DNA from: Candidatus Aminicenantes bacterium
GTDB lineage: Bacteria; Acidobacteriota; Aminicenantia; Aminicenantales; Aminicenantaceae
Assembly (NCBI GenBank): GCA_041686095.1
Contig: JAWLEN010000004.1
Span: forward strand, 1 to 51,290
Direction of reading: 5' to 3'
Length of the DNA: 51,290 bases
The notes under the pieces were generated by a model that was given only the letters and a program-made list of their open reading frames with translations, had not been told where the DNA came from and did no database searches. This document shows, piece after piece, positions 5,070 through 36,484 of this stretch (its first letter is position 1; each line of letters begins with the position of its first letter). A program made the position numbers and the translations under genes.

Positions 5070-5803
5070 AACACAGTTTGTATATAGTAGAATTGTTCAA
5101 CAAAATATTTAGTAAACCTATAGCTTGGGTCCTATCTTTGTTTGGAATCCAAATTAAAAATCCAGAGCATTTCATTCCTGATTATGTCGTGATGAGTATC
5201 ATTGTAGCTATTGTCCTCATTGTGTTTTTCAAGCTCGCTTCAAGAAATTTAAAGCTGGTTCCCTCTAAACGACAAAGCTTGCTGGAATTATTGATCCAGA
5301 CTTTTGAAAACCAGCTGGTTGAAATTGTTGGTGAACAAGGAAGAAAATATGTGCCTCTTGTAGCTACCATCGGGATATTTATTTTTACCAGCAATATTCT
5401 GGGGCTCATTCCTGGTCTTATGTCTCCTACAAGCAAACTGAACGTGACCGCAGCCTGTGCTCTGGTTGTGTTTGTCTATTACCACTGGCAGGGAGTAAAA
5501 AGCCTGGGTTTTTTTAGATATCTCAAACATTTTTTGGGCCCTATTCCTCTTCTGGCTCCCCTCATGCTTCCCATAGAAATAATCAGCCATTTTTCTAGAG
5601 TGGTGTCTTTATCCATACGACTTTTTGGTAACATATTCGCTGAAGAACTTCTTATTGTGGTTATGATGTCTATCATCCCCTTCTTCCTGCCTCTTCCATT
5701 TATGGCTGTGGCTATTTTTACAGCCTTTATCCAAGCTTTTGTTTTTGTGCTGTTAACATGCATTTATCTATCAGGAGCCGTGGCCCAGGAGGAAGAACAT
5801 TAA
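5057..5803 (+). CDS. atpB: F0F1 ATP synthase subunit a
   Basis: 248 aa polytopic membrane protein carrying the invariant stator arginine motif 'LSIRLFGNIFAEE'. Confidence 0.95.
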   Translation: MEKLEHSLYIVELFNKIFSKPIAWVLSLFGIQIKNPEHFIPDYVVMSIIVAIVLIVFFKLASRNLKLVPSKRQSLLELLIQTFENQLVEIVGEQGRKYVPLVATIGIFIFTSNILGLIPGLMSPTSKLNVTAACALVVFVYYHWQGVKSLGFFRYLKHFLGPIPLLAPLMLPIEIISHFSRVVSLSIRLFGNIFAEELLIVVMMSIIPFFLPLPFMAVAIFTAFIQAFVFVLLTCIYLSGAVAQEEEH

Positions 5804-5820
5804 TCTAAAAGGAGAAAAAA

Positions 5821-6165
5821 ATGCCTAAAAATTTCAAACCATTGTTTTTACTTTTCTTTTTAATGATCATGATGAGTGCTCCACTTTTAGCTCAAGAAGC
5901 AGAGCTTTCTAACCAAAGAGCCTCGTTATTTAAACTGTCCTTGATCATAGGAGCAGCTGTGATAACTCTTGCTGCCGCCGCTGGTATTTTTGGTCAAGCC
6001 AAAGCTATAAGCAGCGCATGCGAAGGCATCTCCAGAAACCCGAATTCCGGACCTCATATCAGATTCTTGCTGATTTTTGGTCTAGTCCTCATCGAAACTC
6101 TGGTTATCTATGCTCTCCTTATTTCTATTATTATTCTTATGGTGAAGTGGGGGCAATACGTTTAA
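5821..6165 (+). CDS. atpE: F0F1 ATP synthase subunit c, with N-terminal signal-like extension
   Basis: It has the loop motif 'ISRNP' and the ion-binding Glu in 'LIETLVIYAL'. An AGGAG SD is present. At 114 aa it is longer than usual because of an about 35-aa hydrophobic N-terminal extension. Confidence 0.9.
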   Translation: MPKNFKPLFLLFFLMIMMSAPLLAQEAELSNQRASLFKLSLIIGAAVITLAAAAGIFGQAKAISSACEGISRNPNSGPHIRFLLIFGLVLIETLVIYALLISIIILMVKWGQYV

Positions 6166-6190
6166 ACAAAATAAATAACCGACCAAACCC

Positions 6191-7060
6191 ATGCACAAGT
6201 CTGTCTTCAATATTATTAAAACCACTTTTAAAAGATTTAATGAAGACAGATGTGGGAATTTTTCTATCATCGTTTCTTATTTTACATTACTGTGTGCTAT
6301 TCCTCTGGTTGCCCTTTTCGCTTTCATCACCACAAAAGTATTGGGAAGCTCTGAGCTTGCTTTCCGAAGCCTCAATATTCTATCCGATGAATTCTTTGCC
6401 CAATTAGATCCGCTCTTCTTCCAAAGAGTCCAATCTGTATCAAAAAACATAGGTAATCTCGGCTGGTTTGGGCTTGCCGGCTCTTTCATAGCTGCCAGCT
6501 TTTTGTTTTCCAACCTTATTTATTCTATCAATTTCATATTTAAAGCAAACTACCAAAAATCATTCTTTTACAACCGTCTTATGGAATACCTCATTATGTT
6601 CGTCTTAGGAATCATCATGCTCATTTCTCTCTCTATCACAGCCATATGGACAGCCCTTCATAGAACTTTAAAAGAAAGCGAGGCTATTGCTAACCATATA
6701 AATCCCAAAGTGGCCTCTCTTGCTGACAATTTTTTTCTTCAGTATCTCATCCCCCTTACGCTTACTTTTGTTGTTTTTTTTATTCTTTATAAGTTTATAC
6801 CTGAGGTTAAAGTCTACACTAAAGCCGCTGCCATTGCTGCTGCCATAAGTACTATATTATGGGAAGTATTCAAACGTCTTTTTGCTTTTTATGTGGCCCA
6901 TCTATCAGCGATTGGAATTGTTTTATCAAAGCTGCTCCAAGGAACTCTAACTTCTATTATATTCTTTCTATTGTGGATATCTTTTTCTCTGATGATTCTT
7001 TTCTGGGGTGCTGAATTAGCTGCTGTTCTTAATGAGAGGTTTCATGAAAAATCAGCCTAA
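6191..7060 (+). CDS. YihY/BrkB family inner-membrane protein
   Basis: 289 aa, about 6 TM segments, with an N-terminal '[20 protein letters not shown]' segment typical of the YihY/virulence factor BrkB family. Confidence 0.75.
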
Positions 7061-8114
7061 AAAACCAGTCCCTCCTCTGACAGTCAAAAAAATAGCTAAA
7101 TACTTGAATTGTTCCTTTGAAGGAAACGGTGAAACAGTCATAAAAGGAGTTTCCGGTCTTGAAAAAGCAGATAAAGGGGATTTGGTCTTTTTTTCTCAAA
7201 AAAAATACCGTAAATCACTCCAAAAAACCCATGCTTCAGCAGCTATCATTCCTATGGATGAGGAATTCGAACAACTTCCTGTGATTAAATCAGAAAATCC
7301 CCATTTAAGCTTTGTCAAAGTGATTGAACTTCTGCATCATTCTCAACTTCCTAAACCAGGGATCCACCCCAACGCTTCAGTCTCTCCTTTAGCTAGAATC
7401 GGAACTGATGTGTCCATAGGTGCGTTTGTTTCCATTGGTGATCATGCTGTTATCGGAGACAGAACCGTCATTTTTCCCCTAGTCACCATCTATCCTGATG
7501 TAAAAATCGGAAAAGACTGTGTCATCCATTCCAATGTGGCTATCCGCTCTTCAACTGAAATTGGAAGCAAAGTGATTCTTCACAATGGAGTCAAACTTGG
7601 CTCTGATGGGTTTGGATATGTTAAGAAAAAAGAGGGACCTTACGCCAAAATCCCTCAGATCGGAAAACTAATCATTAAAGATAATGTCGAAATCGGTGCC
7701 AATACCTCTATAGACAGAGCATCCTTGGACCAAACGGTTATTCACCAGGGGGTCAAAATAGATAATCTGGTTCAAATAGCTCATAACGTCATTATTGGAA
7801 AAGATTCAATTATTGCAGGGCAAGCAGGAATCAGCGGCAGTGTCAAAGTGGGAAAAAATGTCATAATGGGAGGACAAGTCGGCATTGCCGATCATATAGA
7901 AATTGGTGATAACACCATCATTGCCGCCAAAACCGGTGTTTCAGGAAACATCCCTCCAGATTCTATTATTGCAGGTTATCCCCACCGGACTATCACGGAA
8001 TGGAAAAAAATATGGGCCTCTTTATCCAGGCTCCGTCCTATGATGAAAGAGTTGAACAGACTAAAAAAACGCATAAAAAAATTGGAAAACAATAAAAATA
8101 ACACCCAAACCTAA
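7032..8114 (+). CDS. lpxD: UDP-3-O-(3-hydroxyacyl)glucosamine N-acyltransferase
   Basis: It has an N-terminal LpxD domain ('TVKKIAKYL...[16 protein letters not shown]'), left-handed beta-helix hexapeptide repeats and 'LGSDGFGY'. ATG at 7044 (MKNQ...) is an alternative start. Confidence 0.9.
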
Positions 8115-8117
8115 ATT

Positions 8118-9041
8118 CTATCTATTCTCTTCAATATATTTGTTAACAGCAAGACCAGCTTCAACTCCAGCTCCGACTGCTGTGGCCACCTGGTTGCTGC
8201 AGGTATCAGTCACATCTCCGGCTGCAAATATCCCTTGTTTAGATGTTTCCATGTTCTTCCCGACTATGACCTCCCCCTTCTCATTTAAATCAACCAGTCC
8301 TTTGACTATATTTGTATTGGGAACCATACCAATAGAGACAAATATCCCATCCAGATTTATTTCAAATTTATCCTTATTTTTGATATTCAGTATGTTTGCT
8401 TTTTGCACTTTTTGATCACCCTTTATCTCCGTTACCACTGAATTCAATGCCAGATTAATTTTCTTGTTTTCTTTGGTTCTTTTCTGGAGTAATTTCTCTG
8501 CTCGAAGGTGTTCCCGGCGGTGAATGATATGGACCATTTTTGCGAACTTTGTCAGAAACAAGGCTTCTGTTAAGGCATAGCTTCCTCCTCCTATTACGGC
8601 CACAACTTTATCTCTAAAAAAGGCGGCGTCGCAAGTGGCACAGTAGGAAACCCCTTTCCCAGTAAACTCACTCTCTCCAGGAACATCTAATTTTCTATGA
8701 CTTGATCCAGTAGCCACAATCACGACCCTGGCTGAATATTTGTTTTCCGCCGCAGTGATAACCCATACATCCTTTTCTCTTTCTATTTTCTTGATCTCTT
8801 CTTGATTTATTTCACATCCAAACTTTACAGCCTGAGATTTAAATTTATCTGCGAGAGAAAACGATGATACTGACTCAGAAAAACCTGGGTAATTTTCTAT
8901 TTTGTCTGTCAATAAGATCTGACCTCCGGGCACTCCCTTATCTAAAATAAGAGTTCTCAATAGAGCCCGTCCTGTGTAAATACCTGCTGATAAGCCTGCG
9001 GGCCCTGCTCCTACAATGACCACATCATAGATTTGTTTCAA
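8118..9041 (-). CDS. trxB: Thioredoxin-disulfide reductase
   Basis: It has an FAD motif 'VVIVGAGPAGLSAG', the redox-active 'CATCD', and an NADPH motif 'VIGGGSYA'. Confidence 0.95.
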   Translation of the reverse strand: MKQIYDVVIVGAGPAGLSAGIYTGRALLRTLILDKGVPGGQILLTDKIENYPGFSESVSSFSLADKFKSQAVKFGCEINQEEIKKIEREKDVWVITAAENKYSARVVIVATGSSHRKLDVPGESEFTGKGVSYCATCDAAFFRDKVVAVIGGGSYALTEALFLTKFAKMVHIIHRREHLRAEKLLQKRTKENKKINLALNSVVTEIKGDQKVQKANILNIKNKDKFEINLDGIFVSIGMVPNTNIVKGLVDLNEKGEVIVGKNMETSKQGIFAAGDVTDTCSNQVATAVGAGVEAGLAVNKYIEENR

Positions 9042-9070
9042 GACCGAATATTCCTTTCTGTTCTAATTCT

Positions 9071-9916
9071 TTACCCCCACCTGAGTTTTTCTTGAACCAG
9101 GTCAAAATAATTTCTCTTTGGAGATGAAATCAAAGAAAGTGCATAGTTGCTGTTTGTTATCTCCACTTTTTCGTTTTTCTTTATTAAATTCCCTCTCTGT
9201 CCATCCAGAGTCAGGTATGTTTTTTCTCCCCCAGAAAGAACCTTAATGGTGACCTTTGATTCTGAAGAAATGACCATGGGGCGAAAAGTGAGGGTGTGAG
9301 GACAGATAGGAGCAATAATGACAGCAGGAATATGCGGCTGTATAATGGGCCCTCCTGCAGAAAGAGAATAAGCTGTGGAACCCGTAGGGGTTGAAATGAT
9401 GATTCCATCCAAACGGGGGACGGCTATCTTCATCTCATTTATCCATATCTCACACCTGATCATCCTCGCAAGGGCCCCTTTATTTATGACAATATCATTC
9501 AAGCATAGGGATGTTTCACCCCGTTGACAAACCTCCAGCATTTGCCTGTGACTGACAATCGAATCATTTCCTTTCAAATATTCCTCTATGGTTAAAAACA
9601 TCTCGTCAAGGGGCACTTCCGTTAAAAACCCAAGGCTTCCCATATTCACTCCCATGACAGGCACTCCTGCCTTTGCCGCCAGATGAGAAATACTAAGCAT
9701 GGTCCCATCTCCTCCTAAAACAACCACCATGTCCACTAATCCGGGGACTTTTTCCCTTGGTATTCCTTTGTTCTTCCTTACTTTTTTGGCAGCAAAATTC
9801 TCCAAAACACACTTGATGCTCTTTTTCTCGAAATAATAAATAATCTCCTTTAAAATCTTTTCAATATTGGGTGCGTGAGGCTTTATAATAAATCCCACTT
9901 TTTTAATCTTTTTCAT
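9071..9916 (-). CDS. nadK: NAD+ kinase
   Basis: 'VVLGGDGTML' and 'TPTGSTAYSLSAGGPI' motifs. Confidence 0.95.
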   Translation of the reverse strand: MKKIKKVGFIIKPHAPNIEKILKEIIYYFEKKSIKCVLENFAAKKVRKNKGIPREKVPGLVDMVVVLGGDGTMLSISHLAAKAGVPVMGVNMGSLGFLTEVPLDEMFLTIEEYLKGNDSIVSHRQMLEVCQRGETSLCLNDIVINKGALARMIRCEIWINEMKIAVPRLDGIIISTPTGSTAYSLSAGGPIIQPHIPAVIIAPICPHTLTFRPMVISSESKVTIKVLSGGEKTYLTLDGQRGNLIKKNEKVEITNSNYALSLISSPKRNYFDLVQEKLRWG

Positions 9917-24490: not shown

Positions 24491-24565
24491 TGGTAGGCGC
24501 GGAGGGTATCGAACCCTCGACCTCTTCCGCGTCAAGGAAGCACTCTCCCACTGAGCTACGCGCCT
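24491..24565 (-). tRNA. tRNA-Val (anticodon GAC), CCA encoded
   Basis: Reverse complement reads AGGCGCG-TA-GCTC-AGTGGGA-GAGT-G-CTTCC-TTGACGC-GGAAG-AGGTC-GAGGG-TTCGATA-CCCTC-CGCGCCT-ACCA. The acceptor has 7 perfect base pairs, the T-loop is TTCGATA, and the anticodon loop is TT-GAC-GC. Confidence 0.95.
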
Positions 24566-24639: not shown

Positions 24640-25122
24640 TCACAAATTTACGATCTCAGCTCTTAAATCTTTCAGGGAAAGAAGGGCTACTGAAAGCTTT
24701 CCAGTCAGCCACCCTCCGGCTTCACCGGGATTTATGATTAAGGTCTGTAAATCTTTATTTATCTTTGGCTTATGGGTGTGTCCATAGATGATGACATCAT
24801 AATCACCGGTGGCTTTGTACTCAGACACCTTAAAATGAGTGTGAGTGACTAAAAATTTCACTCCTTTATAAGTGAATTTAAGAGGTTCTTCCTTTATAGT
24901 TCCTATGGATTTAAAAGCCTTTCTCAGACCTTGTTTCTCTCCATCGCAGTTGCCAAAAACAGCTTTGACAGGACAGTTAAGTTCCTCCAGTTTTTTTGCT
25001 GCAAAAGGGGCGATAAAATCACCGGCATGGATAACAAGGTCGCATTTTGCGCTGTTAAAAAACATAACTGCTTTTTTTAGGGCATGACAATTATCATGAG
25101 AATCTGACATAATACCTATCAT
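24640..25122 (-). CDS. YfcE/MJ0936-family metallophosphoesterase
   Basis: 160 aa with 'MSDSHDN', 'HAGDF', 'GNCDG' and 'GHTHKP' metal-ligand motifs. AAGGAG SD upstream. Confidence 0.85.
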   Translation of the reverse strand: MIGIMSDSHDNCHALKKAVMFFNSAKCDLVIHAGDFIAPFAAKKLEELNCPVKAVFGNCDGEKQGLRKAFKSIGTIKEEPLKFTYKGVKFLVTHTHFKVSEYKATGDYDVIIYGHTHKPKINKDLQTLIINPGEAGGWLTGKLSVALLSLKDLRAEIVNL

Positions 25123-25252
25123 TTGTGATTTCTCCTTCTATATATTAATATTACAAACTCTAACCCGAATTTCAATACGGTGAGCTTGTATCCTGGTTCA
25201 TTCTATATTAAAATAAGTGATTCTTTTGGACTCTAAACATAAGGAGATAAAG

Positions 25253-26557
25253 ATGAAAAAAGCCATCATCATGGGAGCAGCCGGAAGAGACTTCCATAAT
25301 TTTAATGTTCACTTAAGAAAGAATGACAATTACAGAGTGGTTGCGTTCACAGCAACTCAAATACCTGACATTGAGGGAAGAAAGTATCCATCTGAATTAT
25401 CTGGAGAGCTTTACCCTGATGGGATTCCGATCCATCCTGAAGACAAGCTGACGGAATTGATAAAGGAAAACAACATAGATGAAGTCTTTTTCTCCTACAG
25501 CGATGTGCCTCATGAGTATGTGATGCATAAAGCTTCACAAGTGCAGGCAGCCGGAGCCAGTTTTTCTCTGCTCGGTCCTAAGGAAACCATGTTAAAAAGT
25601 CAGCGTCCTCTGATCTCAGTATGTGCTGTCAGAACAGGCTGCGGAAAAAGTCAGACCACCAGAAAAATCGCTAAGATGCTCAAAGAAAAAGGGAAAAAAG
25701 TAGTGGTGATACGGCACCCTATGCCTTATGGAGATTTAGCCAAACAAGCTGTCCAAAGGTTTGCCACTTATGAGGATATGATAAAGCATGACTGCACTAT
25801 CGAGGAAATGGAAGAGTATGAACCCCATATCAAAGAAGGAATCGTGGTCTATGCTGGTGTTGACTATGGGGAAATACTTAAAAAAGCAGAACAAGAGGCT
25901 GATATCATTTTATGGGATGGTGGAAATAACGACATTCCTTTTTATTGGTCTGATCCCGCTATCGTGGTGGCAGACCCTCATAGACCTGGACATGAACTTT
26001 TATACTATCCGGGTGAGACAAACTTCAGACTCGCTGATGTCATTGTTATAAACAAGATGGACACAGCTGAAAAGGAAAATGTAGAAAGCATCATAAAAAA
26101 TATTCAGAAGTTCAATCCTAAGGCAAAAATAATCAAAGCAAACTCAGTCATCAAAGTTAAAGACGAACAGGAAATTTCAGGCAAAAAAGTACTGGTTATA
26201 GAAGATGGCCCTACGCTGACTCATGGAGAGATGGAATACGGAGCTGGAATTGTGGCTGCTGAAAAATACGGTGCTTCGCAAATCATTGATCCAAGACCTT
26301 TTGCTGTGGGGAGCATCAAAAAAACTTTTGAAAAGTATTCCCATTTAGACAGAGTTCTCCCTGCCATGGGATACGGGAAAAAACAAATCGAAGAATTAGC
26401 CCAGACCATCGATAACAGCCAATGCGATCTAGTGGTCAGTGGAACTCCAATTGACCTGGGAAGACTCATAAAAACAAATAAGAAAATACTTCGTATCTCC
26501 TATGACCTAGAAGAAATCGGCTCACCTAACCTCACTGAAATCCTAAGCCAATTCTGA
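25253..26557 (+). CDS. Predicted P-loop GTPase, COG2403 / cyclic 2,3-diphosphoglycerate synthetase-like family
   Basis: It has Walker A 'RTGCGKSQTT', Walker B-like 'DIILWDGGNND' and the guanine-specificity motif 'VINKMD'. The N-terminal 'MKKAIIMGAAGRDFHNFNV' is recalled from COG2403-type proteins; this family call is from memory and unverified. AAGGAG lies 6 nt before ATG 25253. The GTG at 25217 is rejected. Confidence 0.6.
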   Translation: MKKAIIMGAAGRDFHNFNVHLRKNDNYRVVAFTATQIPDIEGRKYPSELSGELYPDGIPIHPEDKLTELIKENNIDEVFFSYSDVPHEYVMHKASQVQAAGASFSLLGPKETMLKSQRPLISVCAVRTGCGKSQTTRKIAKMLKEKGKKVVVIRHPMPYGDLAKQAVQRFATYEDMIKHDCTIEEMEEYEPHIKEGIVVYAGVDYGEILKKAEQEADIILWDGGNNDIPFYWSDPAIVVADPHRPGHELLYYPGETNFRLADVIVINKMDTAEKENVESIIKNIQKFNPKAKIIKANSVIKVKDEQEISGKKVLVIEDGPTLTHGEMEYGAGIVAAEKYGASQIIDPRPFAVGSIKKTFEKYSHLDRVLPAMGYGKKQIEELAQTIDNSQCDLVVSGTPIDLGRLIKTNKKILRISYDLEEIGSPNLTEILSQF

Positions 26558-27507
26558 TGAAAAGAAAAATAGCATTAATCGCTTTTGGCGGGAATGCCAT
26601 CTTACCTAAAGAACAGCGCGGACTTCAATCTGAACAGATGAAGAACGCCCAGAAGGCAGCCCGATTGATAAGCCATATTGTAAAAAAAGGATATGATCCG
26701 ATTGTTGTCCATGGAAACGGCCCACAAGTTGGAAACCTCCTGATCCAAATGGAGGAGTCAATAAATAAGGTCCCTCCTTTCTCTCTTGAAGTCTGCGATG
26801 CCATGACTGAAGGAAGCATGGGATTTATGCTTGAAAAAGCGATCATAAATGAACTTAGGAAAAATTCAATAGATAAGCACATCGCTTCATTAATAACTCA
26901 AGTCGTGGTTGATAAAGAAGACCCTGCTTTCAACAATCCTACCAAGCCTGTAGGACCTTTCTATTCCAAATACAGAGCTCAAATGCTTAAACGGCAAAAA
27001 AAATGGGAAATGGTCGAAGACGCTGGAAGAGGATACAGAAAAGTGGTCCCTTCACCCAAACCCATAGATATAGTTCCTAAAAAAGTATTATACGACCTCG
27101 TTCATTCAGGAAAAATTGTCATAGCTGCTGGAGGAGGGGGGATTCCAGTTATCATCAATGGACGAGGCCTATTCCAAGGAGTCGAAGCTGTCATTGATAA
27201 AGATTTTGCTTCAAGTTTGATAGCGAGAGAAGCGGCTGCAGATCTTTTTATCATCCTTACCAACACCAAATGTGTGTATTTAAACTTTGGCACTCCCCGC
27301 GAAAAACCACTAAAAAAAATAACAATGGAACAGGCTTTGAAACACCTAAAAGAAGGGCAGTTTCCTCCAGGTTCAATGGGTCCGAAAATAGAAGCAGCAA
27401 TAGAATATATCAAAAACGGCGGCAAAAAAGTCATTATCACCTCCGCAAATCACCTGAAAGCAGCTCTGATCAATCGTTCCGGAACCACCATCATCCCGTC
27501 TCCTTAG
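26557..27507 (+). CDS. arcC: Carbamate kinase
   Basis: 316 aa amino-acid-kinase fold with 'IALIAFGGNAIL', 'VHGNGPQVGNLL' and 'IAAGGGGIPV'. The start ATG overlaps the upstream TGA as TGATG. Confidence 0.9.
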   Translation: MKRKIALIAFGGNAILPKEQRGLQSEQMKNAQKAARLISHIVKKGYDPIVVHGNGPQVGNLLIQMEESINKVPPFSLEVCDAMTEGSMGFMLEKAIINELRKNSIDKHIASLITQVVVDKEDPAFNNPTKPVGPFYSKYRAQMLKRQKKWEMVEDAGRGYRKVVPSPKPIDIVPKKVLYDLVHSGKIVIAAGGGGIPVIINGRGLFQGVEAVIDKDFASSLIAREAAADLFIILTNTKCVYLNFGTPREKPLKKITMEQALKHLKEGQFPPGSMGPKIEAAIEYIKNGGKKVIITSANHLKAALINRSGTTIIPSP

Positions 27508-27515
27508 GAGGGTCA

Positions 27516-28427
27516 ATGATTGAAAATCTATTTTCTCTGGATAAAATTTCTGTCTATCAATTCAGCAGACTATTAGACCTTACTTTCAAGATAAAAGAAA
27601 AACCAAAGCAATTCAAAGAGAATCTTTCTGGGAAAATCATAGCCGGAGTGTTTGAAAAACCGTCTTTTTTCCCAAGTGTTAGTTTCCAGATTGCTGTTTC
27701 TTCTCTTAAAGGAGAAAATTTGTTTTTGAAATATTCTGATCTACAGACTAAAAACAAAAAATTATCCTTAGTGTCGTGCAAATGCCTTGAGCAGTGGGCG
27801 GATGGCATAGTCATAGAAGCAAACAATCATAAACATATTCTTGAAATGGGAGAAATGGTCAAAATTCCCATAATAAATGCGAATTCAGGAAGTTTCTCTC
27901 CCTGCCAGGCTTTAGCTGATTTCTTCACCATAAAAGAGCAGTGCAAAGACCTTACAGATATAAAATTAGCTTTCATCGGGAATCAAAAAAATATTTGTCA
28001 AAGCCTGCTTCTAGCCTCAGCTACAGCCGGGACATATATACATATCGCTGCTCCAAAAAAATACCAGCCCGAACATAAGGTCATGGATAGAGCTGAAGAA
28101 AAGGGGAAAGATACTCAATTTAACTACAAAATAACAGAAAACCCCTTAGAAGCCGCTTCAGATGCTGATATCATATATTATTCCTATAACGATTCAAATT
28201 CTTCCCCAACCAGTGAACAAAACTTCCTATTTAAAGACCAACTTCTCTCCTCTTCCAAAAAAGACATTCTCTTTATGTTCAGCCTTACCTCTGAGGAATG
28301 GGGAAAAAGTCTTTACAAAAAGATTCCTTCAAATCAGTCATTAATTTTCAGTCAGGCTGATAATAGGCTTCATATTACGAAAGCGATTATGGTATCATTA
28401 ATAAAAGAAAAGAAAAGAGAAATATAA
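27516..28427 (+). CDS. Aspartate/ornithine carbamoyltransferase-fold protein with degenerate active site (probable pseudoenzyme)
   Basis: 303 aa that aligns end to end with OTCases ('GKIIAGVFEKPS...', 'IPIINA', 'CQALADFFT', 'FSQADNRLHITKAIMV'). However, STRTR is replaced by SFFPS, HPxQ by SPCQ, DxW by SYN and HCLP by FSLT. AGGAGG lies 4 nt before ATG 27516. Confidence 0.8.
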   Translation: MIENLFSLDKISVYQFSRLLDLTFKIKEKPKQFKENLSGKIIAGVFEKPSFFPSVSFQIAVSSLKGENLFLKYSDLQTKNKKLSLVSCKCLEQWADGIVIEANNHKHILEMGEMVKIPIINANSGSFSPCQALADFFTIKEQCKDLTDIKLAFIGNQKNICQSLLLASATAGTYIHIAAPKKYQPEHKVMDRAEEKGKDTQFNYKITENPLEAASDADIIYYSYNDSNSSPTSEQNFLFKDQLLSSSKKDILFMFSLTSEEWGKSLYKKIPSNQSLIFSQADNRLHITKAIMVSLIKEKKREI

Positions 28428-28429
28428 AA

Positions 28430-30619
28430 ATGGCTAAGTCAAGCGAAAACACAAAAGTAATAAAAAAAGACCTCGATTTTATACAGGAAAAACTTTCAAA
28501 ACAAAACAATGTCCCTACTTTAGAAGAACTCACAGAAAGTCTCGCTTACAAAAAAAATGCAAGGCAGTTAAATCAAGAAGTCTTAAAATACGATCCAGAA
28601 TGCACCTATGAAGTCAATGACCTGATTTGTAAAAAATACGATGAACCTCTTGTAATAAGCAGCAAAGAAAAAAAACATTTTCAAGGTAGAGTTGTCCTCA
28701 AAGTCACGAACAAAATGAAATATCCTGATTTTAACTGTGAAATGCTCGAAGTGGATTACACCGGAGGAGGGATATTCCGCAAGCATATAGACTATATGAA
28801 AAGAAAAAACACCCAAGTGCTTCTCCCCGCAGCCCAAGGCAAGTGCAAAACTCCTGAAGTAATAAAAAAAGAAGACGACCCAAGACTTCATAGGCTCCCC
28901 ATGACAGAGAAAGACATGAAAACCTTGAGCGTAAATCTCAGAAAATCGATTTCAAAATCTGACGAATTCTTTGGTTGGAATGAACACTGGCAGCTAACTA
29001 AAAAGAAAATTGAAATTCCCGATGATAAAATAGAAAAAATAGAAAAACTTTTCAGAGAAAAAAAACAATCAGCTTCCACTGAAAAATTAATTGAAAAATT
29101 TTTCAACATAAAACCTGAAGATGACAAATTTGGCATATATTGTCTGAGTTTAAATCACATTTTAAATAAGAAATATAAGAAGATATTTGTTTGTGTTTCC
29201 ACTGATAAATGGGGCAAATGGTTTTTGAAAGAAATCCTTGACTCTTTTTTAAAAGACCTGCCCTTATCCGCAGAAAAAGCGGAACTTCCCCATCTAGAAG
29301 AAGAAACATATGAACCCATAAAAACAAAAGAACAAAAATTTCCTCTTAAAATTTATCTTTCATGGAGAGAAGTTTTATCAGGCGGCATAAAAATGCCACC
29401 AGCACTTAAAAAAGAACTCTCAGATACAAGAGAATATGTTTTCACAGATGAAGAGGAGGGTAAAGATTTCACAACCTTTTACTACCCTGACTTGAATATA
29501 TTTCTAGGGTTGGATGAATTCTACAATAAATACTTTATCCCTCAAGGAGCCAGTCTGACTTTAAAGAAAGAAGACTCAAACCATGTAAGCTTCCGTCTAA
29601 AAAAATCAAAAAAGAAGCTCACGCTTCCTTATCTTGGATACAATGCAAAAAAGGATGAATTTTCTATTTCTGAAAACGAAATATCAACATATGCTCTTCC
29701 CAATAAAATAATCTTTATCGAGCATGAATCACTTAAAAACCTACTTAAACTGTCAGAACAGATAAAAAAGAAGGATCTGCGGGAGCTCCTCATCATTGTA
29801 TTTAAAAACTTTGGCTTTGAAGGAGAAAGACAAACTCTACATTATAGAAAAGCATTCCACCTTGTTGACACACTCAAACACACCTCTCTCGAAGATATAG
29901 AAAAAACCTTATGTCTGTCGCCAGAGTTTGCCATGTCAGAGAAAAAGAAGGGCTTGTTTTTCTATCATGAAAAAATAAAAACCGAAGAAGATTTGGAGTT
30001 TGAAGAGCCATCTAAAACTGAGGAAGAGTTAAAAGCAGAAGAAAAAATATTGGAAGCCCAAGAGGAAGCCCTTCCTGAAATCGGCACAGTCGGGGAAATC
30101 AGCACTCCAGAAATACATCTTGAAGAAAAAAAAGAAATAAAACCCCCTGAGAAAAGGAAACCAGCAAAGAAAAAAGAAAAGAAAAAGCCCAAACCAAAAC
30201 CGAAACCTCCCCCAAGGGAAGAAGAAGAGATTGTTGTTGAAGAACCTCCTTTAGAGAAAAGACAAAGAAAAGCCGAAAAGAAGGAAGTTGAGTTTGCAAA
30301 ACCAGCCCGCAGTAAAAAAGGGAAAAAAAGAATAATCGAGGAACAGATCGAACAGGAAGAATCAGAATTAGAAGCTTTCTTTGCTGTGAAAACAGATGAA
30401 GAAAAAGAAATAGAAGAAGAGGGGATAGAGCACCTGAAACCCAAACCAGAAGAAAAAAAAGAATTTAAAAAACCTGAACAAAAAGAACCGCTGGCAGGAG
30501 GACTGTTTGGAGAAAAATTGAAGTCAGCCTTAAATAAATCAGCCCCAAATAAAAAAGAAGATAAAAAGCCAAAAAAGAAGGAAACAAAGGAAACATTAGA
30601 TAAAAAGAATAAGAAATGA
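28430..30619 (+). CDS. Hypothetical 729-aa protein with long Lys/Glu/Pro-rich C-terminal tail
   Basis: A long uninterrupted ORF that starts 2 nt after the preceding stop. The N-terminal about 520 aa have ordinary composition, while the C-terminal about 200 aa are low complexity ('KKKEKKKPKPKPKPPPREEEE'). I recognise no family motif. Confidence 0.75.
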   Translation: MAKSSENTKVIKKDLDFIQEKLSKQNNVPTLEELTESLAYKKNARQLNQEVLKYDPECTYEVNDLICKKYDEPLVISSKEKKHFQGRVVLKVTNKMKYPDFNCEMLEVDYTGGGIFRKHIDYMKRKNTQVLLPAAQGKCKTPEVIKKEDDPRLHRLPMTEKDMKTLSVNLRKSISKSDEFFGWNEHWQLTKKKIEIPDDKIEKIEKLFREKKQSASTEKLIEKFFNIKPEDDKFGIYCLSLNHILNKKYKKIFVCVSTDKWGKWFLKEILDSFLKDLPLSAEKAELPHLEEETYEPIKTKEQKFPLKIYLSWREVLSGGIKMPPALKKELSDTREYVFTDEEEGKDFTTFYYPDLNIFLGLDEFYNKYFIPQGASLTLKKEDSNHVSFRLKKSKKKLTLPYLGYNAKKDEFSISENEISTYALPNKIIFIEHESLKNLLKLSEQIKKKDLRELLIIVFKNFGFEGERQTLHYRKAFHLVDTLKHTSLEDIEKTLCLSPEFAMSEKKKGLFFYHEKIKTEEDLEFEEPSKTEEELKAEEKILEAQEEALPEIGTVGEISTPEIHLEEKKEIKPPEKRKPAKKKEKKKPKPKPKPPPREEEEIVVEEPPLEKRQRKAEKKEVEFAKPARSKKGKKRIIEEQIEQEESELEAFFAVKTDEEKEIEEEGIEHLKPKPEEKKEFKKPEQKEPLAGGLFGEKLKSALNKSAPNKKEDKKPKKKETKETLDKKNKK

Positions 30620-31690
30620 CAATATTTTATGAACAGAACCTTCTCTTCTTATCACCCCCTTTTCATTTAATAATTCTAAGAGAGGAATCGCGTACTTCCT
30701 GGATAAACCAGACATTTTTTTAAATTCAGCAACCGTTATTTCTTTAGATCCTGATTCTTGAAGAAAAGAAATCAATTGATCAAGCCAATCTGAAAAAAAA
30801 ATAAATCCATCCTTTCCATGAACAACTTTTCTTCTTCTTAACAGGATATCAAACAAGCGGTCAAATCTTTCTGAAGACACACCAAACATATCCTGTAATT
30901 TTTCAAAAGAATATTTCTTAAACTCACCTTTTTTACACATCTCTTCCATTTTTCTTAAGATTCTCTCGTCCGCTTTTGAAATATTCTCGCTGGGAGAAGA
31001 AAGGGCTAATTTATCATTTTTTTCATTGATTCTGTTTAAATATTTCAAATAGTTGATTGTTAAATCAACCACTTTAGGATGGGCATTGAGACTTTTTTTT
31101 ATCTCTTCAACACTCAAGCCTTTTCGCTTGGCGTCTGCCTTACAGCAGTCTTTGATTAAACGTATAATTTTTTTCCCAAAAAGATCCAAACTCATTCGGG
31201 GAATTATCATGATTGGATTAAAGGATACTATTCTTACTTTCTTTTCCTGCTCTAACCATTGACATAAAGTTATAATTTGTTTTTTGGAAAGCCCTGAAAA
31301 ATCTGATATTTCCTTTTGCCCTAATCCTTGAAATCCTTTTTTCTTGGCTAGAGCAAAGATCATGCTGTCTTCATTTTTATTCAGCTGTTTTAAAAACTCT
31401 TCATGCTCTCTCAGGTCTTCAGGAATCTCGTCTCCGGCCTCTGGGATAAGCACTTTTCCCTCTGCAATCAACTCATCAGTTTCAAGGTTATTAAGCATGA
31501 ATCTGTCTTTCCACTTAACTTGGATTTTTTTTCTGGTTTGAATCCGGACAAATTTTTCTTTAGCTTTCTTGTTAGCAAAGGGATAAAAAAATACTGAAGC
31601 TCTCAACCTCTTGTCAAAGACAACCACCGTATCTTCAGAGATGATTTCTTTTTCTCGGTCTCTTAAATTTAATACGGCTTCAAAATACAT
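30596..31690 (-). CDS. SelB-like protein consisting only of domain III plus winged-helix (SECIS-binding-type) domains; no GTPase domain
   Basis: The C-terminus 'ITVAEFKKMSGLSRKYAIPLLELLNEKGVIRREG' matches the terminal SelB winged helix. 'KDRFMLNNLETDELIAEGKVLIPE' resembles the end of SelB domain III (GDRFILR...TIGGG.VL.P). No G1-G5 motifs are present, and only 24 nt separate it from rnr. Confidence 0.65.
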   Translation of the reverse strand: MYFEAVLNLRDREKEIISEDTVVVFDKRLRASVFFYPFANKKAKEKFVRIQTRKKIQVKWKDRFMLNNLETDELIAEGKVLIPEAGDEIPEDLREHEEFLKQLNKNEDSMIFALAKKKGFQGLGQKEISDFSGLSKKQIITLCQWLEQEKKVRIVSFNPIMIIPRMSLDLFGKKIIRLIKDCCKADAKRKGLSVEEIKKSLNAHPKVVDLTINYLKYLNRINEKNDKLALSSPSENISKADERILRKMEEMCKKGEFKKYSFEKLQDMFGVSSERFDRLFDILLRRRKVVHGKDGFIFFSDWLDQLISFLQESGSKEITVAEFKKMSGLSRKYAIPLLELLNEKGVIRREGSVHKILSFLILFI

Positions 31691-33769: not shown

Positions 33770-34408
33770 TCAATAATAAAATAATGAAACATAAGGTATT
33801 TTATACTTCTCTCTAGCCGTCTTAATGAGTTTTTTTTCAGCAATCTGATTTTTTTCTGACTCTTGGTTTATATTATACTCATCTATGGCTTTCTGTCTAT
33901 GTCTTTCCATCTCATGAGGAGCCGCATGCTCTAATAATAATCGGTTGACTTGCTCGTCCCTTCTTTCAAGAGCATCTTCATCAACTTCATCCAAAGATAA
34001 ATCCTCCAGGATATCCAAATAAATCTCCTTAAGATAAGACACCTCTTTTGAGATATTTTTTATAAAGGTCTTGATTTCAGCTTTGACTATTTCAACTCTT
34101 TCGCTACTTGTCTGACCCACATTCTTCTTTCCCACTTTCCTTTCTTTGTAGAGATCATAAGCTGTGGATACAAAACGCCTGCAAAAAGTCAGAGTGAAAT
34201 TTTTTCGTGATCCGGTGTTCTTCCGGAAATATTCATAAGCTGTTTTTATTCCTTCCAACACTGTGTCCAATTGAATATGACGCTCCTCCCATTCCTCAAT
34301 AATATCTATTTCTCTGGGGGAAAGAATGAAAGGAGCTCCTCTTAAGCTGAATAAAAGGCGGGCAATGGTTTGATAATAGTGTTCTGGCTGGGAATCGTAC
34401 TTATTCAT
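33770..34408 (-). CDS. Hypothetical protein (helical, acidic/basic C-terminal half)
   Basis: 212-aa ORF packed tightly between coaX and rnr. 'LSPREIDIIEEWEERHIQLDTVLEGIK' loosely resembles DnaD-type repeats, but no firm family assignment is possible by eye. Confidence 0.6.
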   Translation of the reverse strand: MNKYDSQPEHYYQTIARLLFSLRGAPFILSPREIDIIEEWEERHIQLDTVLEGIKTAYEYFRKNTGSRKNFTLTFCRRFVSTAYDLYKERKVGKKNVGQTSSERVEIVKAEIKTFIKNISKEVSYLKEIYLDILEDLSLDEVDEDALERRDEQVNRLLLEHAAPHEMERHRQKAIDEYNINQESEKNQIAEKKLIKTAREKYKIPYVSLFYY

Positions 34409-35569: not shown

Positions 35570-36484
35570 ATGTCTGGATTGAATATAAGTCTAGTGCTTC
35601 AGCCTTATACAGGAAACAAAAGACCGCATGAATTGTCTACGGCCCCTGAACTTATTTATAGGGAGGCTGCAAAAATTCTCAAACAGGAAGGAGTCAGGGA
35701 ATTCTCAAAAAAGACTATCCAGCTAACAGACAAGGAAAAAAATGAGTATGGAGTTTGGAACCGGATGGGACTTGCCAACGGGCATTTGAGTTGTGAGGTC
35801 GCTCCTTTGATAAGAAAAAAAGTATTTGTCCTAGGTCTATTGGGAAACTGCAACAGCCTAAGCGGAATGCTCGCTGGACTGCAGAATTCTGGAAAACCAA
35901 GAAAACCGATATCTGTAGGACTCATATGGTTTGACGCCCATGGAGATTTCAATACTCCTGAGACCACTTTAAGCGGTTGGCTGGGAGGAATGCCAGTGGC
36001 TGTGGCTGCAGGAAAATGCCTCCACCGCCTCAGGAAACAAGCTGGGCTCGACCCCCCTATATCCACCCGAAATATAATTATGATGGGAGTCCGGGATGTG
36101 GATCCTCTGGAGCAGGAGCTTATCCTCAAATCATCTATCACCACCCTATCCACAAAACAAATCATAGAGAAAAACAAAATCATCACAGATTCTCTAGCCC
36201 AGCTTTCAAATAGAGTGGAAATGCTTTACGTGCACATTGACCTGGATGTTCTGGATGCCGCTTATATTCCAGGACATAATTTTGAGGTATCCGGCGGCCC
36301 GACCCCTACTCAACTCTCTGCAATCCTTAAACTTATAATGAAATTAGAAAAAGTTAAAGCTCTTGGGATCGCCTCTTTCCCTACGGTTAAATACGGCCGG
36401 AAAAAAAGCATGGATTCCACAAAAATACTCATCAAAGGAGCCGTCCAAGGCCTGAAGAATCGAACCTGTATGAATTCTATATAA
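35570..36484 (+). CDS. Arginase/agmatinase/formiminoglutamase-family (ureohydrolase fold) protein, divergent
   Basis: 'LIWFDAHGDFNTPE' (DAHxD), 'GWLGGMPVA', 'GVRDVDP' and 'VHIDLDVLD' (DxDxxD) are present. The first metal motif GGDHS is replaced by 'LGNCNS'. Confidence 0.8.
   Translation: MSGLNISLVLQPYTGNKRPHELSTAPELIYREAAKILKQEGVREFSKKTIQLTDKEKNEYGVWNRMGLANGHLSCEVAPLIRKKVFVLGLLGNCNSLSGMLAGLQNSGKPRKPISVGLIWFDAHGDFNTPETTLSGWLGGMPVAVAAGKCLHRLRKQAGLDPPISTRNIIMMGVRDVDPLEQELILKSSITTLSTKQIIEKNKIITDSLAQLSNRVEMLYVHIDLDVLDAAYIPGHNFEVSGGPTPTQLSAILKLIMKLEKVKALGIASFPTVKYGRKKSMDSTKILIKGAVQGLKNRTCMNSI

Follow-up and report, generated by a model that had tools for sequence, protein, structure and literature searches.

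A widespread P-loop NTPase and carbamate kinase gene pair, joined in one Aminicenantes clade by a putatively dead ornithine transcarbamylase

The four-gene operon and its products

A 51,290-nucleotide stretch of the chromosome of an Aminicenantes bacterium (the window), a host identified by the source names of homologs, carries four tightly spaced genes on its forward strand (Table 1). They encode, in order, a P-loop NTPase (open reading frame 1, ORF1), a carbamate kinase (CK, ORF2), a protein with the fold of ornithine transcarbamylase (OTC) whose active site appears to be lost (pseudo-OTC, ORF3), and a large Aminicenantes-specific protein (gene 4, ORF4). The four genes are predicted to form one translationally coupled operon. 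The notable object within it is the pair of P-loop gene and CK gene, which is widespread, more than the module built around the dead transcarbamylase.

The ORFs, their coordinates and all three junctions are as the original prediction described them. The CK stop codon TAG (27505-27507) is part of TAGGAGG, 4 nt 5′ of the pseudo-OTC start codon at 27516. For the P-loop gene, the start at 25253 is favoured over a GTG at 25217, since AAGGAG lies 6 nt before the ATG and homologs share the start residue. Overlaps of 1-4 nt between P-loop and CK genes are found in loci L001, L003, L005-L007, L017, L052, L063, L070, and L072; in the orthologous loci L001, L003, L005, L006, and L088, CK and OTC genes are 6-10 nt apart and the spacing of OTC gene to gene 4 is -11 to +12 nt. 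Because the tight spacing of the four genes recurs in orthologous loci, it is more than chance. Scans of the operon region for promoter and terminator consensus sequences gave no enrichment over shuffled sequence, and no Rfam element or riboswitch was found upstream of the operon. The 3′ end of gene 4 overlaps a convergent gene on the reverse strand (30596-31690) by 24 nt.

Table 1. Genes, junctions, and upstream features of the operon (window positions)
Feature	Position	Strand	Basis or remark
P-loop NTPase gene (ORF1), 434 aa	25253-26557	+	ORF call; cDPGS-like two-domain fold
Carbamate kinase gene (CK, arcC, ORF2), 316 aa	26557-27507	+	TIGR00746, Pfam AA_kinase
Pseudo-ornithine transcarbamylase gene (pseudo-OTC, ORF3), 303 aa	27516-28427	+	Pfam OTCace_N and OTCace; motifs lost
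Gene 4 (ORF4), 729-aa Aminicenantes-specific protein	28430-30619	+	Homologs, AlphaFold2, Foldseek
TGATG stop/start overlap, P-loop gene/CK gene	26555-26559	+	TGA 26555-26557 and ATG 26557-26559
TAGGAGGGTCAATG: CK stop inside the pseudo-OTC Shine-Dalgarno	27505-27518	+	Sequence
TAA-AA-ATG junction, pseudo-OTC gene/gene 4	28425-28432	+	TAA 28425-28427, 2-nt gap, ATG 28430
Divergent intergenic region 5′ of the operon, 130 bp	25123-25252	+	Contains AAGGAG Shine-Dalgarno 25241-25246
Promoter-like site ATGACA-18-CATAAT with extended TG	25084-25113		Consensus match only; regional matches not enriched over shuffles

The P-loop protein carries a Walker A motif (RTGCGKS), the motif WDGGNND, and a G4 motif (NKMD). 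No curated family matched it in Pfam and NCBIfam profile searches. Weak profile matches were obtained to Pfam cobW (24.9 bits, confined to residues 252-294) and to the NCBIfam models HypB (23 bits against a cutoff of 121) and ZigA (21.5 bits against a cutoff of 600). Its sole sequence relatives in the PDB are cyclic-2,3-diphosphoglycerate synthetases (cDPGS), matched over part of the ORF1 protein (9sxb, E 1e-9; 8oru, E 1e-5). In a full-length Foldseek search of the PDB, the AlphaFold2 model (pLDDT, the predicted local distance difference test score, of 93.4) matches the cDPGS entries 8oru and 8ork best (E 1e-17), followed by LpxK and HypB; the alignment with cDPGS extends over about 490 columns, with a template modelling (TM) score of 0.44-0.47 and 16% identity.

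cDPGS is a dimer whose subunit combines an N-terminal domain with a P-loop kinase-fold domain, and the P-loop residues Lys145 and Arg146 bind 2,3-diphosphoglycerate (2,3-DPG; PMC10690619). ORF1 has the same two-domain architecture and finds its best structural match in cDPGS (8oru, 8ork, 9sxb). However, the P-loop GTGKRVGKT of cDPGS corresponds to VRTGCGKS in ORF1, so that the Lys-Arg pair becomes Thr-Gly, and the NKMD motif of ORF1 is missing in cDPGS. The ORF1 family moreover occurs in many phyla, in anaerobic archaea as well as anaerobic bacteria, and its gene is linked to CK rather than to a 2-phosphoglycerate kinase. On fold and motifs, ORF1 is best regarded as a member of the cDPGS superfamily that is not itself a cDPGS. 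With its modelled two-domain fold, shared with cDPGS and LpxK, an enzymatic role is no less likely than a regulatory one. The original prediction had called the protein a GTPase and had suggested for the gene set either a regulatory or scaffolding complex or a ligase-type reaction; the NKMD motif stands and the enzyme fold favours the ligase-type option at least equally, but the plain GTPase label probably does not fit. NCBI and JGI records label the homologs "GTPase" or "cyclic 2,3-diphosphoglycerate synthase", and this widespread enzyme is probably misnamed in databases.

The G3E/SIMIBI GTPases (HypB, UreG, MeaB, CobW) resemble ORF1 in their P-loop core with NKxD, in the structure of the core domain, and through the weak profile matches. 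Those matches, however, cover about 45 residues and lie far below the HypB and ZigA cutoffs. ORF1 differs further in its extra N-terminal domain and its many invariant motifs of substrate-pocket type, and no metallocentre client is encoded nearby. Assignment of ORF1 as a G3E metallochaperone was rejected on the failure of the family-level profile matches.

The second gene product scores 368.1 bits against the arcC equivalog model TIGR00746 (cutoff 358.25) over residues 7-313 and is predicted to be an intact, bona fide carbamate kinase. A CK gene beside an OTC-family gene recalls the arcABCD operon, the more so as the OTC of sister lineages is active. Yet the operon is not a canonical arc cluster, in agreement with the original prediction. 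Neither arcA, arcD, nor a second transcarbamylase is encoded among ORFs of at least 120 aa in the window, all of which were either scanned with Pfam or are recognisable alternative-frame overlaps, with one exception (6018-6407, 129 aa). The equivalent of arcB is predicted to be dead, the P-loop gene comes first, and the lineage-specific gene 4 comes last. Neither arcA nor arcD was found in the syntenic Aminicenantes loci compared.

The P-loop and carbamate kinase pair across phyla

Relatives of the P-loop protein occur in at least 592 species-level genomes, and the family comprises 3,544 clusters at 50% identity (E <= 1e-3). The 80 loci compared here are the best 80 of these genomes, and the frequencies given below describe the orthologous group, not the whole superfamily. 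The best 80 relatives are 61-76% identical to the window protein, and identity between bacteria and archaea is 61-66%. Their hosts include Aminicenantes, Anaerolineae, Neomarinimicrobiota, Calditrichota, Nitrospina, WOR-3, Cloacimonadales, Bacteroidota, Ignavibacteria, Myxococcota, Spirochaetota, Thermoplasmata, Aciduliprofundum, Bathyarchaeia, and Heimdallarchaeota, among others. An alignment of 87 orthologs shows at least 95% conservation at 151 of 446 positions. Variation is absent or almost absent from the motifs GAAGRDFHNFN, RHPMPYG, and WDGGNND and slight in RTGxGKSQ and EDGPTxTHG, apart from the x position; the G4 motif reads [IVL]NK[IVM]D in most of the orthologs.

One homolog (P0444, 806 aa) contains an intein with a LAGLIDADG homing-endonuclease domain exactly inside Walker A. 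The insertion point corresponds to residues K132/S133 of the window protein (about 25646-25651), and Ser of GKS is the first C-extein residue; the N-extein cannot be clearly recognised there. Other long homologs, apart from P0444 and a fusion discussed below, carry no informative extra domain.

A CK gene lies directly downstream of the P-loop gene on the same strand in 27 of the 80 loci, that is, in all seven from Aminicenantes and in 20 of the 73 others. The latter span about ten phyla. Lineages with this adjacency are Neomarinimicrobiota, Calditrichota, Nitrospina, KSB1, Zixiibacteriota, Fidelibacterota, Ignavibacteria/Melioribacteraceae, Bacteroidota, WOR-3, Myxococcota, and Acidobacteriota. 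Four CKs from other loci were scored against the arcC model and reached 330-374 bits (cutoff 358; two above, one at, and one about 28 bits below it), and all four pass the cutoff of the carbamate-kinase subfamily model. The conserved cross-phylum unit is the P-loop gene and CK only. Conservation of the gene linkage thus holds for this pair, and does not extend to the whole of the set originally proposed: the pseudo-OTC is confined to one clade, and third partners vary. A literature search found no publication describing the pairing, in line with the claim that the association was undescribed. The CK linkage, with its overlapping codons, is a testable handle on the function of the P-loop enzyme.

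The third partner is an active OTC after P-loop-CK in L058, L062, L063, L066, and L072, and in L024 an OTC gene directly follows the P-loop gene. In L065 (Bacteroidota, 5425-9577) the order is P-loop-argF-arcC-pyrB, with CK flanked by both transcarbamylases that consume carbamoyl phosphate (CP). Ten loci of the FCB group and related lineages read P-loop-CK-sucC-sucD (L015, L016, L017, L028, L036, L038, L048, L052, L054, and L056, from Neomarinimicrobiota, Calditrichota, Nitrospina, KSB1, Zixiibacteriota, Fidelibacterota, and Ignavibacteria). An aldehyde dehydrogenase gene lies upstream in seven of the ten, and ndk follows sucD in L015, L016, and L052. The aldehyde dehydrogenase of L015 scores above the equivalog cutoff for pyrroline-5-carboxylate (P5C)/glutamate-semialdehyde dehydrogenase (TIGR01236, 777 bits). 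L070 has the order P-loop-CK-ndk-ackA. A glmS-like gene is found upstream in L063, L064, L065, and L072.

Where no CK is adjacent, the neighbours are unrelated housekeeping genes (argS, obg, nusB, glmS, a fab cluster, and others), with the exception of a 2,4-diaminopentanoate dehydrogenase gene in L029. In nine Anaerolineae loci with no nearby CK (L022, L031, L032, L040, L059, L067, L075, L078, and L083), argS is directly upstream of the P-loop gene on the same strand. L081 (Bathyarchaeota) has an argS-like ORF on the opposite strand only, about 2.7 kb downstream of the P-loop gene.

Predicted loss of transcarbamylase function within Aminicenantes

The product of the third gene retains the two-domain OTCase fold (Pfam OTCace_N, E 1.7e-24; OTCace, E 2.8e-22), and its closest PDB sequences are the OTCs 4nf2 and 1a1s. 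It falls below every NCBIfam OTC cutoff (NF001986, 199.9 against 306; TIGR00658, 195.5 against 280.85), whereas active OTCs of related loci reach 414-448 bits. Alignment with active OTCs indicates that the CP site is lost, with S-x-R-T-R changed to SFFPS, Arg-106 to Lys or Asn, and HPxQ to SPCQ. The ornithine site is lost as well: DxxxSMG has become YSYNDSN, followed by a 7-residue deletion, and HCLP has become FSLT. With all CP- and ornithine-binding motifs gone, ORF3 is predicted to be a catalytically dead OTC-fold protein, and on this point the original prediction is borne out by profile scores and alignment alike.

The motif losses are common to about 15 database clusters of 56-97% identity. 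Because the replaced positions vary among these clusters, no new motif appears to have taken the place of the old OTC site. The protein would fit a pseudoenzyme rather than a decaying pseudogene, since it is under purifying selection and every dead-clade member with the gene retains an intact ORF of about 300 aa. To our knowledge, no catalytically dead OTC kept as a pseudoenzyme has been described previously. Public records call proteins of this type "ornithine carbamoyltransferase", an annotation from which metabolic reconstructions would wrongly infer arginine or citrulline metabolism. A comparable case is the inactive dihydroorotase subunit of class A aspartate transcarbamylases (ATCases), a dead paralog of the CP pathway kept as a structural component of an active enzyme. 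It differs in fold and partner, and a complex containing the pseudo-OTC is only conjectured.

The dead OTC, within the same four genes and the same flanks, is present in L001, L002, and L003. An intact OTC occupies the same position, in the order P-loop-CK-OTC-gene 4, in L005, L006, L007, L009-L013, and L087. The pseudo-OTC is the positional ortholog of the active OTC in sister Aminicenantes, and it is not an intrinsic or founding member of a conserved module. In L008 (7305-10617) the OTC gene is deleted, leaving P-loop-CK-gene 4 with about 150 nt between CK and gene 4. L088 (6090-6998), a sister lineage of the window clade, encodes a second kind of dead OTC, 33% identical to that of the window and different in all five motif replacements. 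Neighbour-joining trees of P-loop protein plus CK and of the gene 4 protein both unite L008, L088, and the window clade. The simplest history is probably a single inactivation, after which the gene was long kept and then deleted once; an active OTC would first have become a dead one that was still retained and would finally have been lost, all inside one bacterial class. Downstream of many loci with active OTC are genes for a DAO-family oxidase, an OCD/mu-crystallin-family protein, and a Pro_racemase-family protein. This set of downstream genes varies between loci. The idea that death of the OTC tracks its loss was rejected, as L009, L012, and L013 lack these genes and yet have an active OTC.

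Substitution rates were estimated by the Nei-Gojobori method. Within the dead clade, the nonsynonymous rate (dN) is 0.065-0.083 for the P-loop gene, 0.049-0.074 for CK, 0.20-0.31 for OTC, and 0.16-0.19 for gene 4. The ratio of dN to the synonymous rate (dS) is 0.034-0.048, 0.022-0.039, 0.09-0.16, and 0.05-0.09, respectively, ratios that are approximate given that dS is saturated in most pairs. Between L005 and L006, both with active OTC, dN is 0.164 for the P-loop gene, 0.147 for CK, 0.201 for OTC, and 0.328 for gene 4. Amino acid identity between the window and L088 is 79% for the P-loop protein, 79% for CK, 33% for OTC (proportion of nonsynonymous differences, pN, 0.47; of synonymous differences, pS, 0.76), and 53% for gene 4. 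At similar P-loop divergence, the active pair L006 and L009 shows 74%, 82%, 68%, and 57%. The dead OTC therefore appears to evolve about 3-4 times as fast as its neighbours, yet under purifying selection, while the OTC of the active clade evolves at a rate like that of its neighbours.

The fourth gene always follows P-loop-CK-(OTC) in Aminicenantes loci. Its product had been called a Lys/Glu-rich orphan. This description fails: the protein has about 704 homologs, all of those with a source name coming from Aminicenantes or Acidobacteriota and identity being about 50% throughout the class, and it has a confidently modelled N-terminal part of about 500 residues in which B3-like and winged-helix-like domains are predicted. 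No match was found in Pfam, NCBIfam, or PDB sequence-profile searches. In the AlphaFold2 model, residues 10-515 fold confidently and the Lys/Glu-rich tail, which contains three conserved short motifs, is disordered. A barrel of about 100 residues gives weak-to-moderate Foldseek matches to the B3/LlaJI-N/BfiI DNA-binding pseudobarrel (1yel, 6j9b, 5yzy, and 6c5d; probability 0.99-1.0 but E 0.008-0.08; TM 0.5-0.63 by target length), and other parts match winged-helix proteins. The modelled folds suggest, with low confidence, that gene 4 probably encodes a nucleic-acid-binding protein.

Proposed function, rival explanations, and neighbouring genes

CK interconverts CP and ADP with carbamate and ATP. 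The reading preferred here is that the P-loop protein and CK act together, probably as a complex, at this carbamate/CP node, and that the P-loop enzyme contributes a GTP-dependent step to the CK reaction or controls it. As a preferred guess, GTP-driven chemistry would turn CK into an effective source of CP, a regulatory or assembly role being nearly as likely. In Aminicenantes the pair was extended by an OTC, which would exchange CP with CK, and by the lineage-specific gene 4 protein; the dead OTC may persist within the CK complex as a subunit without catalytic function. The view that the P-loop protein and CK function as a pair, and that the pseudo-OTC has been kept as a non-catalytic subunit, has in our judgement about an even chance of being correct.

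Related P-loop enzymes activate an oxyanion by phosphorylation, as in dethiobiotin synthetase (acting on a carbamate), adenylosuccinate synthetase (using GTP), and cDPGS; for this reason it is chemically plausible that GTP drives the formation or activation of carbamate. Such a step would also explain the strong selection on CK after the death of its OTC partner. The nearest physical precedent is Pyrococcus furiosus, in which CK and OTC form a channelling complex and an anabolic CK is the source of CP (PMC6022934). CK is likewise associated with OTC here, and in L065 with ATCase too, though by gene adjacency only. No P-loop partner is described for the P. furiosus complex, and the OTC-fold protein of the window is without CP-binding motifs.

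Several observations weigh against this reading. Gene spacing is the sole pointer to co-transcription and complex formation, and the approximate dN/dS ratios bear on how firmly selection can be judged. The deletion in L008 shows that at least one lineage can do without the pseudo-OTC. In L004, a complete genome (CP070757.1), the P-loop gene stands beside only a 92-aa CK fragment (9305-9581), followed by an HD-domain gene. Because 53 of the 80 P-loop loci have no neighbouring CK, the P-loop enzyme may have a function independent of CK. The sole fusion of CK to a P-loop protein, P0364, is weak evidence, being known from one sequence on a contig of 2.8 kb. The direction of the CK reaction is also ambiguous, as P5C dehydrogenase, SucCD, Ndk, and AckA in the neighbourhoods suggest catabolic harvesting of ATP, while L065 suggests CP synthesis.

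A specific version of the best explanation is a two-component CP synthetase, in which the P-loop enzyme with GTP activates bicarbonate or forms carbamate and CK phosphorylates it, the two replacing CarAB and feeding OTC or ATCase. The arrangement in L065 speaks for it, as does a P-loop fold of the small-molecule kinase/synthetase kind, and CK is under strong selection although the adjacent OTC is dead. We know of no P-loop enzyme that forms carboxyphosphate, which counts against this version. Anabolic CKs require non-enzymatic carbamate and high ammonia (PMC6022934), a need that a partner enzyme could fill, and Thermococcus kodakarensis, said to rely on an anabolic CK (PMC6022934), has a cDPGS-annotated gene, TK1039, which serves as a lead only. 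The many P-loop loci without CK tell against the two-component scheme, and catabolic-looking neighbours (P5C dehydrogenase, SucCD, Ndk, AckA) outnumber anabolic ones. This version is unlikely as it stands, and its extension, a split CP synthetase that keeps the pseudo-OTC as a non-catalytic subunit from a former channelling complex, is similarly doubtful. If true, P-loop protein and CK would constitute a split GTP- and ATP-dependent CP synthetase and a fourth route to CP, present in many uncultured anaerobic bacteria and archaea. Either way, the pair bears on how organisms that lack CarAB can use CKs as sources of CP, or on how they handle CP.

The other explanations place the operon in catabolism or separate the P-loop protein from CK. 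It could be an ordinary arc-like operon for citrulline or arginine catabolism, with the P-loop gene as passenger and the OTC as a relic whose ORF stays open only through translational coupling to the gene downstream. Sister lineages with an active OTC and DAO, OCD-family, and Pro_racemase-family catabolic genes would suit such an operon, as would the OTC deletion in L008, the freely varying lost-motif positions in the dead clade, and an OTC/gene 4 junction of 2 nt with no strong Shine-Dalgarno. But adjacency of P-loop and CK genes, often overlapping, in about ten other phyla rules out a passenger, and the pseudo-OTC, with dN/dS of 0.09-0.16, pN well below pS, and a recognisable OTC fold kept at 33% identity, is under more constraint than an open ORF requires; the arc-like account is distinctly improbable. 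Improbable to the same extent is a kinase or ligase of arginine, ornithine, or proline catabolism that acts on another substrate and is linked to CK through a shared catabolic regulon. Several neighbours would agree with it: P5C/glutamate-semialdehyde dehydrogenase, OTC, and the 2,4-diaminopentanoate dehydrogenase of L029, argS upstream in Anaerolineae, the OCD-family and Pro_racemase-family genes in Aminicenantes, and, in the window itself, a gene of the arginase family that lies 5 kb downstream. Each of these other neighbours is, however, limited to one or a few lineages and CK is by far the most frequent and closest neighbour, often with overlapping codons; nor does this account offer a nameable substrate. 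That ORF1 is a genuine cDPGS, making a compatible solute unrelated to CK, is scarcely credible despite the PDB sequence matches to 9sxb and 8oru and the best full-length Foldseek match. Identity in the structural alignment is low at 16%, no NCBIfam model is matched, and Thr-Gly replaces the pair that binds 2,3-DPG; ORF1 has the NKxD GTP motif and cDPGS uses ATP; the 51 kb window has no gene for a 2-phosphoglycerate kinase; and cyclic 2,3-diphosphoglycerate is limited to hyperthermophilic methanogens (PMC10690619), whereas the host here belongs to Aminicenantes.

The remaining window is housekeeping chromosome, with pheST, rplT, rpmI, infC, thrS, valS, dnaE, guaA, dxs, the gene for RNase R, and others. 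Upstream of the operon and divergent from it are a tRNA-Val(GAC) gene (24491-24565, reverse strand) and, as the immediate 5′ neighbour, a gene for a YfcE-type metallophosphoesterase (24640-25122, reverse strand). The metallophosphoesterase gene has the same position in L003, L006, L087, and L088, and in L004 it shares the strand of the P-loop gene. The convergent gene that overlaps gene 4 encodes a 364-aa protein in which only a SelB winged-helix domain, at the C-terminus, can be recognised; the protein is not SelB, because it is without the GTPase domain, and the gene is kept at its position in most of the Aminicenantes loci examined. A 212-aa ORF (33770-34408, reverse strand) between the genes for RNase R and type III pantothenate kinase has no Pfam or NCBIfam match, and a gene of the same size is found at that position in L001-L003, as compared by size and position. 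The arginase-family protein (35570-36484, forward strand; Pfam Arginase, E 2e-26) scores 120 bits against an arginase equivalog cutoff of 228, and its gene, about 5 kb downstream of the operon, is conserved there in L001-L003.

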